Assembly: GCF_963921235.1 (NCBI RefSeq)
Contig: NC_086108.1
Coordinates: 7,626,001 to 7,690,000 of the forward strand
Length of the DNA: 64,000 bases
Reading direction: 5' to 3'
Source: Mobula hypostoma
Taxonomy: Eukaryota
Part shown: piece after piece, positions 10,144-48,039 of the stretch
Numbering within the stretch: position 1 is the first letter of the stretch
How the letters are laid out: each line of letters starts with the position of its first letter
Notes under the pieces: generated by a model
Told to the model about the DNA's origin: nothing
What the model saw: only the letters and a program-made list of their open reading frames with translations
Database searches by the model: none
Translations under genes and position numbers: made by a program

Positions 10144-12694
10144 TAGGTTGTTCTGCACAAAGACTCCCAAGTTTCTTTGCATTTCAGATTCTTGGATATT
10201 GTCTCTGTTTAGAAAATAGTCTGCACATTTACTTCTTCTACCAAAGTGCATGACCATGCATTTTCCAACATTGCGTTTCATTTGCCACTCTCTTGTCCTT
10301 TCTCCTAATCTGTCTAAGTCCTTCTGCAGCCTACCTGTTTCCTCAACATTATCTGCCCCCTCCATCAATCTTTGTATCATCTGCAAACTTGGCAACAAAG
10401 CCATCTATTCCATCATCTAAAGCATACAGCATAAAACAAAGCAGTCCCAACACCGACCTCTGTAGAACACCAACAGTCAGTGGCAGCCAACCAGAAAAGG
10501 ATCCTTTCATTCCATCTCGCTGCCTCCTACCAATCAGCCAATGCTCTAACCATGCTGTAACTTTTCTGTAAAACCATGGGCTCTTAACTTGGTAAGCAGC
10601 CTCATGTGTGGCACCTTGTCAAAGGCGCCTGAAAGTGCAAATATACAACATCCACTGCATTCCCTTTATCTATCCTACTTGTAATCTTCCCTCAAAGAAT
10701 TCCAACAAGTTCGTCAGGCAAGGTTTTCCCTTAAGGAAACCATGCTGACTTTGTCCAATCTTTTCCTGTGTCAGTAAGTACTCCATAACCTCATCCTTAG
10801 CAGTCGACTCCAACATCTTCCCAAACATGGAGTTCAGGCTAACTTGCTCTATAATTCCCTCTCTTGCCTTCCTCCTTTCTTAAAGAGTGGAGTGACATTT
10901 GTAATTTTTCAGTCTTCAGGCACTATGCCAGAGTCCAATGGTTTTTTTGAAAGATCATTAGTAATGCCTCTATAATCTTTCCTGCTACCTCTTTCAGAAC
11001 CCGAGGATGCAGGTCATCTGGTCCAGGAACCTTATGTACCCTTAGATGTTTCAGCTTTTTGAACACCTTCTCCCTTGTAATAGTAACTACACTTACTTCT
11101 CTTCCCTCACACCTTTCAACATCTGGCACACTGCTTGTGTCTTCCACAGTGAAGACCGATGCAAAATACTCATTTATTTCATCTACCATCTCCTTGTCCC
11201 CTATTATTATTTCTCCAGTCTAATTTTCTAGTGGTCCTATAACCACTCTCATCTCTCTTTTATATTTGACATACTTGAAAAAGCTTTTACTAACCACTTG
11301 GACATTGTTTGCTAGCTTGCTTTCATATTTCATCTTGTCCCTCCTAATGACTCTTTTAGTTGCTCTCTGTAGGTTCTTAAAAGCTTCCCGATAATTTTTC
11401 TTTGTTGTATGCCCTCTCTTTTGCTTTTACATTAGTTTTGACTACCCTTGTCAGCCACAGTTGTACTATTTTGCCATTTGAGTATTTCTTTGTTTTTGGA
11501 ATACATCTATCCTGCACGTTCCTCATTTTCCCCCAGAAACTCATGCCATTACTGCTCTGCTGTCATCCCTGCCAGCATTCCTTCTAATTTAATTTGGCCA
11601 ACTCCTCTCTCATACCACTGTAATTTCCCTTACTCCACTGAAATACTGCTATGTCAGACTTTTCTTTCTCCGCCTCAAATTTCAAGTTGAACATCAATCC
11701 TATTGTGATCACTGTCACTTAAGGGTTCTCTCACCTTAAGCTCCCTAATCACCTCTGGTTCATTACATAACACCCAATCCAGTATAGCTGATCCCCTAGT
11801 AGGCTCAATGACAAACTGCTCTAAAAAGCCATCTCGTAGGCATTCAACAAACTCACTCTCTTGAGGTCCATTACCAACCTGCACGTTGAAATCTCCCATG
11901 ACTATCATAATGTTGCCCCTACGACACGCCTTTTCTATTTCCTGTTGTAATCTGTAGTCCACATCCCAGCTACTGTTGGGAGACCTGTATATAACTGCCA
12001 TCAGGGTCCTTTTACCCTTGCAGTTTCTTGACTCAACCCACAAAGATTCAACATCTTCCAATCCTATGTCTCATCTTCCTACTGATTTGATGCCATTCTT
12101 TACCAGCAGAGCCACACCACCCCCTCTGCCAACCTTCCCATTCCTCTGATATAAGGTGTAACCTTGGACATTCAGCTCCCAACTACAACCATCCTTCAGC
12201 CACGATTCAGTGATGGCCACAACATCATACCTGACAATCTGTAATAGTGCAACAAGATCATCCATCTTATTTCTTGTACTCTGTGCATTGAGATATAACA
12301 CTTTTGAGTTAACCACATTTACTACCCTTTTTGACTCTGCATCCCTAATACATGGCTACTCATCCTGCTGGCTGCAATTTTGTCCTATCATTTGCCTGCC
12401 CTTCCTGACAGTCCGACTGCACGCTATCTTTGCTTTTTCACCATCCATCCATAAGTTATCTTTACAGTCCCCTTCAATATCTGGTCAGCACTCTTACCAG
12501 CGGTGTGCATCAAAGCACACAATCATGTCCGTGGGCTGAGGATTAACTGAGAATTATCAGAATCAGAATCAGATTTAAAATCACCGGCACACATCATGAT
12601 ATTTGTTAAGTTTGCAGCAGCACTACAAGGTAACACATAATAATAGAGAAAAACCTGTAAATTACAGTAAGTATATCTATTAAATAGTTAAATT

Positions 12695-17590: not shown

Positions 17591-20453
17591 TAATACAGAA
17601 AATCAGAATGATGATAAGACAAGAAAACATGAATAAATAAAAAGTAGTCATAACTTGATACCATCAAGGTGGGAGCGGATGGTGAGTGGGTGTTCAGTAC
17701 TGTCTACCAGCCTGTTGTTCCCTGCTGCCAGTAGAAAGTCCCTGCGTTTGAATGGTCTCTCGCTCAAGGCCACCAGGTGACTGTACTGGAGTCCTTAGTC
17801 TTGGGCAAGATTTAATTGACATGGTTTGGCCTCTACAGTTCACAATATGGTGTGTTTCTGGTCGCTCCTTTCGTTTGTTGCTATTTTGATTGGCCTGCAG
17901 ATAATGAATGACATAACTCTAGATTGAACTGAACTGAATATGCTTGAACTTTTTTGATTTTTGTGTTTTATATTCAGTGTCTTTTGCTCCTATTTTTGCT
18001 GCTTGCACGGTTTATTTATTTGTGTGTGTGGGGGGGTGGTTTGATGATTTTCTTTGAACGGGTTCCATGTTTCTTGTTTGTTTTGTAGCTGTCAGCGGGA
18101 AGCAAGATCTCAAGAGTTGCATGCTGCATACAATCTTTGCTGAAGAGGCCTGTCATGGCTTCCATGACAGATGGCACAAATTTAATTAAATAAATTCTCC
18201 CCATTTTCTCATTTCTCCCCATCTCTGAAACATCCTGCAGTGTTCCGAGATCTCTGCCCTCCACCAAGTTTCTTTGTTACGCACACCTCAGTTTAATTCA
18301 CTCTACTATCAACTGGAGGTCCTTCAATAGTGGCCCTAAGGTCTGGGATTCACCCCCTACTTCTCTCTCTTCTTTTCAAATACCCAATATCTTACGCTTT
18401 CACTAAGCTTTTAGTCACCTTTCCTGATATTTCTTATACCATTCCAGATCAACCTAGAATTTCATGACCAAAAATCTGAGGTGCAAAGGGACCTTACTTG
18501 GGAGCCCTTGTGCAGGATTTGCTAAAGGTTAATTTGCAGGTTGAGTCGGCAGTGAGGAAGGCAAATGTGATGTTAGCATTCATTTCGAGAAGGACTAGAA
18601 TATAAAATAAGGGTGTAATGTTAAGGCTTTATAAGGCACTGGTGAGGCCACACGGAATATTGTGAGCAGTTTTGGGTCTCTTATACAGGAAGAGATGTGC
18701 TGACATTGGAGAGGATTCAAAGGAGGTTCACAAAAATGATTCTGGGCTTGAAAGGCATTCAATGGCTCTGGGCCTGTACTCACTGGAATTCAGAAGAATG
18801 AGGGGGATCTCATTCAAAATCCATCAAATGCTGAAAGACCTCAACAGAGTGCATGTGGAAAGGATGTTTCCTATGCTGGGGGAGACTAAGACCAGAGGAC
18901 ACAGCCTCAGAGTAAAGGGACGTCCATTTGTCATGGAGATGAGAAGGAATTTCTTTAGCCAGAGAGTAATGAATCTGTGGGATTCACACCCCTGGCTGAC
19001 ACCGCCCATGCTCAAGTGTAGAGAATCATATTCGCGGAGGGCCAGCAGAACTGAACTAACCTAGCATTTATGAGAGAAAGGTAACAACAACACTGGGTAT
19101 CCTTCAGAAGGCTGCAGTCTATGAACATCTTAAATGTGCATTTATCCCTATACATTGTGAGTATAATGGTTATCTGATTTGCTTTGGGAATTTAAACTAG
19201 GTGATTGAGGGGAGACTTGATAGAGGTATACAAAATTATGAGGAGTCTGGATAGGATAAATGCAAACAGACTTTTTCCACTGAGGTTTGGTGGGACTACA
19301 ACTAGAGGTTGTGGGTTAAGGCTGAAAGATGAAAAGTTTAAGGGGAACATGAGGGAAACTTCTTCACTCAGAGGGTATGAGCTGCCAGCGCAAGTGGCGC
19401 ATGTGAGTTCGATTTCAGTAGTTAAGAGAAGTTTGGATAGGTATATGATTCGTGGGGGTATGGCAGGCTATGGTCCAGGAGCAACTCAATGGGGGTAGGC
19501 AGCTTAAATGGTTTGGCACAGACTAGATGGGCCAAAAGGCCTGTTTTTGTGCTGTACTTTTCTATGACTCTCTAACACTGTGGCATCTCCCTCTGCAGCG
19601 AAAAGAAAAACAAAGTGAAAAGGAAATACATAGCATTAATCTCAAGGCTATAATCTCATTGAGTCCTGAGCCCTCTTCGTACACAGAACGTTATTGGAAC
19701 TCCTCAATAAAATTCCGCATTCTTGGAAAAGTTAGGTCTGACAAGGATATGGAAAACATGGGTACTCTAAAAGCTGATGTAGGTACAAAGGTAGACTAAG
19801 AGCAGAATTCTTTGGATTTAAAGTCAGCATTTGTGTTAAATAGGAAACCAAGGAGCCTGTAACCCAGTCTGAGCTCATATGGCTGTTGTGAGCTTTGCTG
19901 CTTGCTATTTAGGTCATCGTTTTAATCTCTCAATCAGATGTTGTGCTCTAACCATCACAGCGGGTCTATTATTATTCAACTCCAGAGTCCTTCAGCCTTC
20001 CATTTGAATCTTTGGACTTATTTTCTTAGGAATACAGCTTTAAAAGTTATTTAATGGCAATGTTTTGTATCTAAATCAATTTGCATCAGAAACAAGTCAC
20101 AATGGAGTCAGTTCACTTCAGTACTCTCAAATACAATGGGCAGCCCAATCAGTTCTTTATTTCTCAGCATGCATTCATAGAAATAAGTACAATTATAAGG
20201 CAGGTGTTCCTTAAGGTTGTTATAGCTGTGGGTGGTAATGGGGACAAGCTCCCACTACCTATTAAATGTTCCCAATGACGTGTGCCTCAAATAGCCTCTG
20301 ACAACCAAGACCAGCTCCTGGTCTTCACATGTGGCTTAGCTACTCAGCCTGGCAGAACAGTTTCTACTGACAGGAGAAGGGCAAAGGCAGGTTACTGCCT
20401 CCCGAAAACCAGTTGCTTTGGGCAGATAGGGCTCCTCAACGTGCCAATATTTA

Positions 20454-44364: not shown

Positions 44365-44856
44365 GACTCGATAGTAAGGGGGTCAGGTAGGCGATTCTAT
44401 GGACGCAGTCCAGAGACCCGGATGGTAGTTTGCCTCCCTGGTGCCAGGGTCCGGGATATTTCTGATCGTGTCCAAGATATCCTGAAGTGGGAGGGAGAGG
44501 AGCCAGAGGTCGAGGTACATATAGGAACCAATGACATAGGTAGGAAAAGGGATGAGGTCCTGAAAGGAGAATATAGGGAGCTAGGAAGGGAGTTGAGAAA
44601 AAGGACCTCAAAGGTAGTAATCTCGGGATTACTGCCTGTGCCACGCGACAGTGAGAGTAGGAATGCGATGAGGTGGAGGATAAATGCGTTGCTGAGGGAT
44701 TGGAGCAGGGGGCGGGGATTCAAGTTTTTGGATCATTGGGACCTCTTTTGGCGCAGGCGTGACCTGTACAAAAAGGACGGGTTACACTTGAATCCTAGGG
44801 GGGCCAATATCCTGGCAGGGAGATTAGCGAGGGCTACTGAGGTGACTTTAAACTAG
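44365..44856 (+). CDS. CR1 ORF1 C-terminal SGNH/GDSL esterase domain (5'-truncated)
   Basis: DSIVRG (GDS block), LPGA, HIGTND and DGLHLN motifs in an open frame ending ACT TTA AAC TAG. Confidence 0.9.
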   Translation, partial: DSIVRGSGRRFYGRSPETRMVVCLPGARVRDISDRVQDILKWEGEEPEVEVHIGTNDIGRKRDEVLKGEYRELGRELRKRTSKVVISGLLPVPRDSESRNAMRWRINALLRDWSRGRGFKFLDHWDLFWRRRDLYKKDGLHLNPRGANILAGRLARATEVTLN

Positions 44857-47800
44857 AATGGTTGGGAGGTGGGAATCAAATTAAAGAGGCTAGGCGTGAG
44901 GAGGTTAGTTCACAACAGGGGGCTGGGAACCAGTGCAGAGAGACAGAGGGGTGTAAAGTGAGGGTAGAAGCAATAAGTACTAAGGAGAAAAGTAAAAGTG
45001 GCAGGCCGACAAATCCAGGGCAAGCATTAAAAAGGGCCACTTTTCAACATAATTGTATAAGGGCTAAGAGAGTTGTAAAAGAGCGCCTGAAGGCTTTGTG
45101 TGTCAATGCAAGGAGCATTCGTAATAAAGTGGATGAATTGAAAGTGCAGATTGTTATTAATGATTATGATATAGTTGGGATCACAGAGACATGGCTCCAG
45201 GGTGACCAAGGATGGGAGCTCAACGTTCAGGGATATTCAATATTCAGGAGGGATAGACATGAAGGAAGGGGAGGTGGGGTGGCGTTGCTGGTTAAAGAAG
45301 AGATTAATGCAATAGAAAGGAAGGACATAAGCCGGGAAGATGTGGAATCAATATCGGTAGAGCTGCGTAACACTAAGGGGCAGAAGACGCTGGTGGGAGT
45401 TGTGTACAGGCCACCTAACAGTAGTAGTGAGGTCGGAGATGGTATTAAACAGGAAATTAGAAATGTGTGCAATAAAGGAACAGCAGTTATAATGGGTGAC
45501 TTCAACCTACATGTAGATTGGGTGAACCAAATTGGTAAAGGTGCTGAGGAAGAGGATTTCTTGGAATGTATGCAGGATGGTTTTTTGAACCAACATGTCG
45601 AGGAACCAACTAGAGAGCAGGCTATTCTGGACTGGGTTTTGAGCAATGAGGAAGGGTTAATTAGCAATCTTGTCGTGAGAGGCCCCTTGGGTAAGAGTGA
45701 CCATAATATGGTGGAATTCTTCATTAAGATGGAGAGTGACATAGTCAATTCAGAAACAAAGGTTCTGAACTTAAAGAGGGGTAACTTTGAAGGTATGAGA
45801 CGTGAATTAGCTAAGATAGACTGGCAAATGACACTTAAAGGATTGACGGTGGATATGCAATGGCAAGCATTTAAAGGTTGCATGGATGAACTACAACAAT
45901 TGTTCATCCCAGTTTGGCAGAAGAATAATTCAAGGAAGGTAGTTCACCCGTGGCTGACAAGAGAAATTAGGGATAGTATCAATTCCAAAGAAGAGGCATA
46001 CAAATTAGCCAGAGAAAGTGGCTCACCTGAGGACTGGGAGAAATTCAGAGTTCAGCAGAGGAGGACAAAGGGCTTAATTAGGAAGGGGAAAAAAGATTAT
46101 GAGAGAAAACTGGCAGGGAACATAAAAACTGACTGTAAAAGCTTTTATAGATATGTAAAAAGGAAAAGACTGGTAAAGACAAATGTAGGTCCCCTACAGA
46201 CAGAAACAGGTGAATTGATTATGGGGAGCAAGGACATGGCAGACCAATTGAATAATTACTTTAGTTCTGTCTTCACGAAGGAGGACATAAATAATCTTCC
46301 AGAAATAGTAGGGGACAGAGGGTCCAGTGAGATGGAGGAACTGAGCGAAATACATGTTAGTAGGGAAGTGTTGTTAGGTAAATTGAAGGGATTGAAGGCA
46401 GATAAATCCCCAGGGCCAGATGGTCTGCATCCTAGAGTGCTTAAGGAAGTAGCCCAAGAAATAGTGGATGCATTAGTGATAATTTTTCAAAACTCGTTAG
46501 ATTCTGGACTAGTTCCTGAGGATTGGAGGGTGGCTAATGTAACTCCACTTTTTAAAAAAGGAGGGAGAGAGAAACCGGGGAATTATAGACCGATTAGCCT
46601 AACGTCGGTGGTGGGGAAACTGCTGGAGTCAGTTATCAAAGATGTGATAACAGCACATTTGGAAAGCGGTGAAATCATCGGACAAAGTCAGCATGGATTT
46701 GTGAAAGGAAAATCATGTCTGACGAATCTCATAGAAATTTTTGAGGATGTAACTAGTAGAGTGGATAGGGAGAACCAGTGGATGTGGTCTATTTGGATTT
46801 TCAAAAGGCTTTTGACAAGGTCCCACACAGGAGATTAGTGTGCAAACTGAAAGCACACGGTATTGGGGGTAAGGTATTGATGTGGATGGAGAATTGGTTA
46901 GCAGACAGGAAGCAAAGAGTGGGAATAAACGGGACCTTTTCAGAATGGCAGGCGGTGACTAGTGGGGTACCGCAAGGCTCAGTGCTGGGACCCCAGTTGT
47001 TTACAATATATATTAATGACTTGGTTGAGGGAATTAAATGCAGCATCTCCAAGTTTGCGGATGACCCGAAGCTGGGTGGCAGTGTTAGCTGTGAGGAGGA
47101 TGCTAAGAGGATGCAGAGTGACTTGGATAGGTTGGGTGAGTGGGCAAATTCATGGCAGATGCAATTTAATGTGGATAAATGTGAAGTTATCCACTTTGGT
47201 GGCAAAAATAGGAAAACAGATTATTATCTGAATGGTGGCCGATTAGGAAAAGGGGAGGTGCAACGAGACCAGGGTGTCATTATACACCAGTCATTGAAAA
47301 TGGGCATGCAGGTACAGCAGGCGGTGAAAAAGGCGAATGGTATGCTGGCATTTATAGCGAGAGGATTCGAGTACAGGAGCAGGGAGGTACTACTGCAGTT
47401 GTACAAGGCCTTGGTGAGACCACACCTGGAGTACTGTGTGCAGTTTTGGTCACCTAATCTGAGGAAAGACATCCTTGCCTTAGAGGGAGTACAAAGAAGG
47501 TTCACCAGATTGATTCCTGGGATGGCAGGACTTTCATATGAAGAAAGACTGGATGAACTGGGCTTGTACTCACTGGAATTTAGAAGATTGAGGGGGGATC
47601 TGATTGAAACATATAAAATCCTAAAGGGATTGGACAGGCTAGATGCAGGAAGATTGTTCCCGATGTTGGGGAAGTCCAGAACAAGGGGTCACAGTTTGAG
47701 GATAAAGGGGAAGCCTTTTAGGACCGAGATTAGGAAAAACTTCTTCACACAGAGAGTGGTGAATCTGTGGAATTCTCTGCCACAGAAAACTGTTGAGGCC

Positions 47801-47893
47801 AGTTCATTGGCTATATTTAAGAGGGAGTTAGATATGGCCCTTGTGGCTACGGGGATCAGCGGGTATGGAGGGAAGGCTGGGGCGGGGTTTTGA
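44847..47893 (+). CDS. CR1 ORF2 (APE endonuclease + reverse transcriptase) with one frameshift at ~46768-46770
   Basis: NARSI, GITETWL, VYRPP, MGDFN, SDHN, NYRPISLTS, QHGF, LDFQKAFDKV, GVPQGSVLGP, FADD. The two ORFs (44862-46838 and 46778-47893) join if one G is restored in gatagggagaacc. Confidence 0.93.
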
Positions 47894-48039
47894 GTTGGAT
47901 GATCAGCCATGATCATAATAAATGGCGGTGCAGGCTCGAAGGGCCGAATGGCCTACTCCTGCACCTATTTTCTATGTTTTCTATGTAACCATCAGCACGC
48001 CACCCTAGTCTTGAACTCAAACCATTCTTGTAATCTATG

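Follow-up and report, generated by a model that had tools for sequence, protein, structure and literature searches.

The 64,000-nucleotide stretch of the Mobula hypostoma genome analysed here (the window; contig NC_086108.1, positions 7,626,001 to 7,690,000, forward strand) carries a copy of a CR1-group long interspersed element (LINE), whose first open reading frame (ORF1) ends in an esterase domain and whose second (ORF2) encodes an endonuclease and a reverse transcriptase (RT). ORF1 of this element ends on a slippery heptamer, T_TTA_AAC, directly abutted by its stop codon, and ORF2 lies in the -1 frame without a usable AUG. The anatomy and the phase of this junction recur in distant relatives of the element, and its nucleotides are deeply conserved, synonymous sites included. 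We consider -1 programmed ribosomal frameshifting (PRF), yielding a fusion of the two products (ORF1p-ORF2p), to be the best explanation of the junction and, judged by comparison of the sequences, a probable one.

In the ORF1 frame, the junction reads ACT (44845-47), TTA (44848-50), AAC (44851-53) and TAG (44854-56), with the heptamer in the X_XXY_YYZ phase (Table 1). The initial annotation of this DNA had described the same in-phase heptamer at the ORF1 end ACT TTA AAC TAG, and every coordinate that it gave holds. It had also placed ORF2 in the -1 frame, open from 44841, and we find this frame open from there (GDFKLEWLGGGNQ...) to 46838. The -1 frame is closed by a TGA 6 nucleotides (nt) upstream of the heptamer, thus the shift window is restricted to the heptamer. 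The first ATG of the ORF2 frame also lies where it had been annotated, inside the endonuclease, and a start there would remove most of that domain. No stop codon overlapping an AUG, as in the UAAUG of SART1, is found at the window junction (AAC TAG AAT) or in any of the 15 lineages described below. By a rough estimate, an in-phase canonical heptamer would occur by chance within the 15-nt overlap in about 0.4% of cases. A single copy is therefore weak evidence, and the comparative data carry the weight.

The junction region has at least 1606 candidate copies in the 3.48 Gb genome; among them, 40 were scored and show 97-100% identity. Three sets of copies were compared, namely the copies nearest to the window (n = 30), copies picked by the Pfam esterase model (n = 31) and copies of an older subfamily B that is 83-85% identical to A (n = 22). 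Both the heptamer and the stop are intact in all 30 of the nearest copies. The heptamer is intact in 29 and the stop in 30 of the 31 copies picked by the Pfam model, and the corresponding numbers for subfamily B are 20 and 19 of 22. These tallies look like neutral decay of copies from a master that bears the signal. An intact ORF1 is 311 amino acids (aa) long. Among 16 copies with the -1 frame open for at least 218 codons, 14 share the first Met, about 215 codons past the heptamer. An in-frame AUG of the family upstream of the endonuclease, or a different phase of the two ORFs, had been named as an outcome that would speak against frameshifting; we find no such AUG, and the phase is constant.

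The copies also vary at a few positions near the junction. A TGA located 12 codons into the -1 frame of two subfamily B copies was considered as a refutation and rejected, being CpG decay of CGA; codon 12 of this frame is CGA in 12, TGA in 9 and GGA in 1 of the 22 B copies. The window has an A at 44867, which interrupts a run of six G (GGGAGG), and this is the minority state, as 22 of 29 other nearest copies have G and 7 have A. G stands at 44867 in 30 of 30 copies picked by the Pfam model, and A>G is found at about 100% of the depth in contig sets of four other organisms. The contigs of these four organisms show no variant at or above 10% at 44844-44864 and variants on both sides of it, a weak indication since these are contigs, of uncertain kind and uninformative on expression, and belong to the same family.

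Diverged relatives give a stronger comparison. Our set of 15 lineages consists of five ORF1 families of this genome (A-E) and 10 metagenome-borne relatives. Families C-E came from searching the same genome with distant ORF1 proteins, and their junctions read GGT TTA AAC TAA (C), GCT TTA AAC TAG (D) and GAT TTA AAC TAG (E). In each of the three, the -1 frame is open from a point 6-15 nt upstream of the heptamer. Scanning metagenome contigs with an ORF1 alignment, we obtained 38 loci at 25-52% identity, 14 of which reach the ORF1 end, 10 of these with downstream sequence. All 10 junctions, from relatives at 28-40% ORF1 identity, have [T/G]TTAAAC directly followed by TAG, TAA or TGA. Both ORFs can be seen at 10 of the loci, six of which have undamaged junctions. 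The endonuclease lies in the -1 frame at all six; the other four are frameshifted copies that retain the motif. A similar scan of genome contigs with a second alignment returned only true bacterial SGNH hydrolases (24-31% identity) and was uninformative.

When 14 junctions were aligned on the heptamer, high information was confined to the columns of the heptamer, of the stop's TA and of the G run; over the 60 nt upstream, median pairwise identity was 0.40. Free synonymous breakage of the heptamer, against which the initial annotation had cautioned, is not seen between lineages despite flank identity of about 40%, as all 15 lineages use TTA for Leu and AAC for Asn. The third base before TTA is T in 14 lineages and G in one. 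The stop always adjoins the heptamer (TAG in 12, TAA in 2 and TGA in 1 of the 15). A run of five G follows 10 nt past the heptamer in 12 lineages, 9 nt in two and 7 nt in one, and the Gly codon within the G run is GGG in all 15. In most lineages the -1 frame becomes open only 6-22 nt ahead of the ORF1 stop, and in two the distance is 118 nt. The first-Met positions of the ORF2 frame are not conserved among lineages.

Two of these junctions have an unusual form. Family C (L128-L136) has two overlapping in-phase heptamers, G_GGT_TTA and T_TTA_AAC, within GAG GGT TTA AAC TAA. The metagenome locus L083 (680-689) has G_TTA_AAC, within TCG TTA AAC TAG, and a spacer of 7 nt, not 10, ahead of the G run.

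We also checked the C-termini of ORF1 proteins. We assembled homologues from rays, sharks, sawfish, coelacanth, frogs, turtles, lizards, snake, hummingbird and alligator, and a profile search of 1.84 billion representatives was added (18,511 matches at E ≤ 0.001, the best 150 of which were used). Keeping proteins whose last esterase motif lies at most 48 residues from the end and removing duplicates, we retained 171 distinct C-termini. They end in -LN in 109 cases, in -GN in 12 and in -KN in 3, and in about 11 further ORF1s an invariant x-K-N lies 5-15 residues from the C-terminus. The Asn at residue 311 is one of 12 invariant columns in ORF1 alignment A1, G-N is invariant in alignment A4 and K-N in alignment A5. 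Leu, Gly and Lys are chemically unrelated, and their codons UUA, GGA and AAA complete the heptamers U_UUA_AAC, G_GGA_AAC and A_AAA_AAC.

The residue before these pairs varies with the class. Before LN, residues whose codons end only in a pyrimidine (C, Y, D, F, H, N) number 26 against 2 whose codons end only in a purine (E). Before GN the numbers are 0 and 8, all Gln (Fisher p = 1.5e-6, a value inflated by relatedness). Before KN we find S, A, T, R and Q, all of which have codons that can end in A. This is the pattern expected if NNT, NNG and NNA codons preceded the three heptamers, respectively, and it would not be expected of a peptide motif. Together, the 15 lineages and the 109 -LN ends support the gag-pol-like frameshift that had been proposed from the single copy.

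Two stingray gene models span the junction, reading ...REG-FKL-NLQGAG and ...RGG-FKL-DVQGAG; because they read FKL there, the -1 frame at these junctions is TTT AAA CTN. A search of longer proteins for natural ORF1-ORF2 fusions gave five matches, all of them chimeric gene models. Scanning viral contigs for the GN and KN classes, we found none and obtained one unrelated match at 23%.

Several protein entries deserve mention in their own right. The homologues P0116, P0117, P0178, P0210 and P0243 form a small group that ends in -FFR or -GFR and may have a different shift site, such as a U-rich heptamer. The gene models P0028, P0062, P0065, P0255 and P0256 contain LINE ORF1 or ORF1-ORF2 sequence and are likely annotation chimeras; their public names are 40S ribosomal protein S24 isoform X2, TMEM204 isoforms, hydroxyacid oxidase 2 isoform X1 and VSIG10-like 2. 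Of the entries P0021 and P0084, one is labelled Pseudomonas aeruginosa SGNH/GDSL hydrolase, is 60% identical to this ray LINE ORF1 and ends in -GLN, and the other, from the frog parasite Protopolystoma, is similar to the frog type. Host DNA within the respective assemblies is the probable source of both.

The points that weigh against frameshifting concern the stimulator, the exceptions in our data and, as set out further below, a competing route of translation. The initial annotation had noted a G-rich tract in the place where a stimulator would be expected. That part stands in so far as GGTTGGGAGGTGGG begins at 44860, 6 nt past the heptamer, and the G run is conserved; neither a structure nor a G-quadruplex could be demonstrated. 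Folding the downstream stretch, which had been suggested as a check, turned out negative. The 100 nt past the heptamer fold no better than shuffles (minimum free energy z from -0.8 to +0.8, 13 sequences), and no consensus structure appeared in five families (-0.66 kcal/mol, 2 pairs; three minus-strand loci were offset, with the junction included). No canonical hairpin or pseudoknot was found 5-9 nt 3′ of the heptamer, in a search that was not exhaustive for pseudoknots and long-range pairs. A G-quadruplex as the universal stimulator was rejected, as several of the 15 tracts lack four G-runs, and it is possible that such a structure forms in some lineages and not in all. The only conserved 3′ element is the linear G tract at +10. 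A 2016 recoding review describes a minority class of stimulators which begin 12-15 nt beyond the site on its 3′ side, may consist of linear mRNA and work together with trans-factors at the edge of the entry channel (PMC5009743). The stop codon and the G tract are putative stimulators.

Among the exceptions, 47 of the 171 ORF1 ends fall in none of the three classes (5 FR, 3 SN and singles); some of these are decayed or mis-called, and others are unexplained. The heptamers of the GN and KN classes are predicted from proteins only. The lineages are related, and the counts and the Fisher p overstate their independence. Slippage, its efficiency and the fusion as the functional form of ORF2p are likewise inferred.

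The competing route of translation is one in which ORF2 is made as a separate protein, either through stop-start coupling of the SART1 kind or through the AUG-independent termination-reinitiation that has been proposed for L1. In that case the signal for tethering or reinitiation would consist of the stop and the G tract, with the heptamer either included in it or incidental. Such a route has precedents: L1 ORF2 can be translated without an AUG by another, unknown initiation route, according to the recoding review (PMC5009743), and SART1 uses UAAUG with a downstream structure, as stated in the accessible part of a review of non-LTR (long terminal repeat) protein biogenesis (PMC3894237). It would suit a stop that is always adjacent and followed by a conserved linear motif with GGGA-like cores. 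It would also suit an ATG that lies 4-5 codons past the heptamer in the -1 frame in 4 of the 15 lineages (L081, L082, L088 and L110), where reinitiation is conceivable. However, reinitiation leaves three observations unexplained. The codons TTA and AAC and the third base ahead of them do not vary at synonymous positions in 14-15 of the 15 lineages; the residue at -3 covaries with L, G or K as X_XXY_YYZ demands; and the -1 frame in every lineage is open across the heptamer and closed just upstream. A restart codon is not conserved either, and family A has none for 215 codons. We regard a separately made ORF2p as unlikely.

Still less probable, in our view, is a role of these letters outside translation, be it a C-terminal -LN signal of ORF1p combined with a Gly-rich N-terminus of ORF2p, or an RNA or DNA motif (a TATA-like TTTAAA, a packaging signal or an RT recognition site). 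At the protein level, the terminal Asn is indeed invariant and the Leu nearly so, and the -1-frame peptide FKL..G.G is fairly conserved as well. A peptide signal, however, would give no reason for a single codon to be used out of the six for Leu, the two for Asn and the four for Gly, or for the neighbouring wobble base to be constant, and L, G and K are unlike in chemistry yet share XXA codons. A fixed nucleic-acid motif, for its part, would not switch in phase to forms compatible with GGGAAAC or AAAAAAC, a switch that we predict from the proteins. Chance, a coincidence of about 0.4% by our estimate if one repeat family were all we had and not to be ignored when very many windows are scanned, is refuted by the same arrangement in five families and 10 distant relatives and by the LN ends of ORF1s across vertebrate classes, and its probability is negligible.

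Under -1 frameshifting, most ribosomes on ORF1 would terminate at the UAG abutting U_UUA_AAC and release ORF1p, a zinc-finger/coiled-coil and SGNH esterase protein of 311 aa. A fraction would slip by -1, tRNA-Leu re-pairing from UUA to UUU and tRNA-Asn from AAC to AAA. The shifted ribosomes would read CUA GAA UGG and continue through the linker, the endonuclease and the RT. This would produce, in the manner of gag-pol, an ORF1p-ORF2p fusion of about 1,300 aa across ...TLN-LEWLGGGNQ..., and the frequency of the shift would set the ORF1p:ORF2p ratio. The trans-frame peptide given in the initial annotation (...EVTL/F-KLEWLGG) was off by one residue pair. It would be ...EVTLN-LEWLGGGNQ, because in canonical tandem slippage UUA and AAC are still decoded in frame 0 and CUA is the next codon.

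In this mechanism, the heptamer would have two conserved partners, the abutting 0-frame stop and a linear tract of five to six G 10 nt downstream, with no hairpin or pseudoknot. The abutting stop may favour slippage, since the A site would stay empty once AAC has been decoded. Slippage with an empty A site is a regime known from other systems. The G tract at +10 would be located where the mRNA enters the ribosome and may act there. We put forward a broader proposal tentatively, as a possibility that we rate well below frameshifting itself. In it, LINEs of the CR1 group with an esterase ORF1 would make their endonuclease and RT only as an ORF1p-ORF2p fusion by -1 frameshifting. A new type of stimulator, an abutting stop plus a linear G5 tract at +10 that the ribosome itself or a trans-acting G-tract-binding factor would recognise, would take the place of RNA structure, and sister lineages would use G_GGA_AAC or A_AAA_AAC at the same position.

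Table 1. Features of the CR1-group element and its ORF1/ORF2 junction (positions in the window)
Feature	Position	Strand	Remarks
CR1-group LINE copy, family A, 5′-truncated and decayed; young high-copy family	44365..47985	+	Similarity to the full-length-ORF1 copy L047 begins at 44365
ORF1 3′ part, residues ~149-311 of 311, SGNH/GDSL esterase domain	44365..44853	+	Pfam, tblastn, PDB match
TGA closing the -1 frame, 6 nt 5′ of the heptamer	44838..44840	+	
ORF2 part 1, -1 frame: linker of ~85 codons, AP endonuclease (~45144-45714), RT start	44841..46838	+	
Slippery heptamer T_TTA_AAC, in X_XXY_YYZ phase of ORF1	44847..44853	+	
ORF1 stop TAG, adjoining the heptamer	44854..44856	+	
Conserved G tract, GGGAGGTGGG in the window and GGGGGGTGGG in the family	44864..44873	+	Begins 10 nt past the heptamer
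First ATG of the ORF2 frame, within the endonuclease (VIMGDFN)	45492..45494	+	215 codons past the heptamer TTT
ORF2 part 2, other frame: remaining RT and C-terminal region	46769..47893	+	RVT_1, 1.5e-21

The window ORF1 matches PF13472 (Lipase_GDSL_2, 1.1e-13) in Pfam, is 93% identical by tblastn to the intact ORF1 P0001, and its esterase matches the ZfL2-1 ORF1p esterase of PDB 4c1b (7.3e-30). The 5′ truncation has removed its first ~148 codons. ORF2 matches Exo_endo_phos (4.2e-12) and then RVT_1 in Pfam, and the RT of this copy is divided between two frames by a copy-specific indel near 46769-46838. The 3′ tail consists of TTTTCTATG twice at 47968-47985, short tandem repeats in place of poly(A). 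Such short repeats at the 3′ end are typical of CR1. The window copy is dead, and since it is 5′-truncated with a split RT, the finding concerns the family; the signal is a property of the family, not of the single copy. We assign the element to the CR1 group (CR1/L2 lineages, Jockey superfamily) by its domains, its esterase-type (type IV) ORF1 and its 3′ repeats, a label that covers both CR1 and L2. In vertebrate CR1 and L2, no ORF1 subtype other than the esterase one has been identified, according to the available text of a 2026 survey of vertebrate CR1-group elements (PMC13343379).

The motif TTTAAACTAG was found twice in the window against 0.14 expected in shuffles. The second occurrence, at 19191-19200 and followed by ...GGGGAGACTTGATAGAGGTATACAAAATTATGAGG, reads RGDLIEVYKIMR; this is the C-terminal region of an unrelated CR1 ORF2 3′ fragment with no ORF1/ORF2 junction. 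A second, different CR1-like ORF2 fragment lies at 10691-12352 (minus strand), with 45-53% aa identity to the family A ORF2 and several frameshifts. No ORF1 or junction motif was found upstream of this fragment in the window.

Comparing the junction with known systems, we find the closest likeness in the gag-pol and pro-pol -1 PRF of retroviruses and LTR elements and in nidovirus ORF1a/1b. They share the heptamer and its phase, an upstream structural or accessory ORF that is fused to a start-less polymerase ORF in the -1 frame (as we propose for the CR1 element), and the same fixed-ratio logic. The site of nidovirus ORF1a/1b is itself U_UUA_AAC. Among animal LTR elements, pol lies in the -1 frame in 28 of 51, many of them with classical heptamers, as reported in the consulted sections of the recoding review (PMC5009743). 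Unlike the gag-pol and nidovirus sites, the CR1 site belongs to a non-LTR retrotransposon, its stop abuts the heptamer, no pseudoknot or hairpin was found, and conservation on its 3′ side is limited to a linear G tract 10 nt away.

In that last respect the site resembles shift sites with protein-dependent or distant 3′ stimulators, in which a short linear element likewise lies roughly 10 nt or farther in the 3′ direction. The C-rich motif of arterivirus nsp2TF and the 2A-bound element of cardioviruses are stimulators of this kind. The CR1 motif, in contrast, is G-rich and a putative stimulator without a known binding factor. With L1 and SART1, the element shares a bicistronic LINE RNA, ORF2 translation by ribosomes that come from ORF1, and an ORF2 output that would be low relative to ORF1. 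L1, however, has a spacer between the ORFs and an ORF2 with an AUG, and SART1 an AUG overlapping the stop, whereas in the CR1 element the ORFs overlap in the -1 phase at a slippery site and a conserved AUG is lacking. The gag frameshift of HeT-A, a telomeric non-LTR element of Drosophila, occurs within gag and not at an ORF1/ORF2 junction, in an element without RT. It is the only non-LTR frameshift named in the portion of the 2016 recoding review that we could use, where LINE ORF2 is treated as an initiation problem (PMC5009743).

-1 frameshifting is not the accepted model for LINE ORF2. It is not mentioned in the available parts of the review of non-LTR protein biogenesis (PMC3894237) or of the 2026 vertebrate survey (PMC13343379), nor in the accessible text of an ORF1 domain survey, an esterase structure paper and papers on chicken and coelacanth CR1. 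Full-text literature searches, as far as the indexed texts extend, returned no description of frameshifting at a CR1 or L2 ORF1/ORF2 junction; the oldest full-length CR1 descriptions lie outside their coverage, and a prior mention there is possible. The heptamer itself is a textbook one. The new features are the non-LTR host, the lack of a structured stimulator and the conserved module of stop and G tract.

How LINE ORF2 is translated is a long-standing open question, and the accepted answers, namely reinitiation in L1, stop-start coupling in SART1, 2A peptides and internal ribosome entry sites, all yield free ORF2p. LINEs of the CR1 group with an esterase ORF1 are the dominant retrotransposons of most non-mammalian vertebrates. 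If they make ORF2p by frameshifting, models of ribonucleoprotein assembly, cis-preference and ORF1p:ORF2p stoichiometry would change for a very large share of vertebrate repeats, and a simple annotation rule would be at hand for calling ORF2 in CR1-group elements. The junction would also be a widespread case of -1 frameshifting in the cellular genomes of vertebrates, and its structure-less stimulator would be open to dissection.

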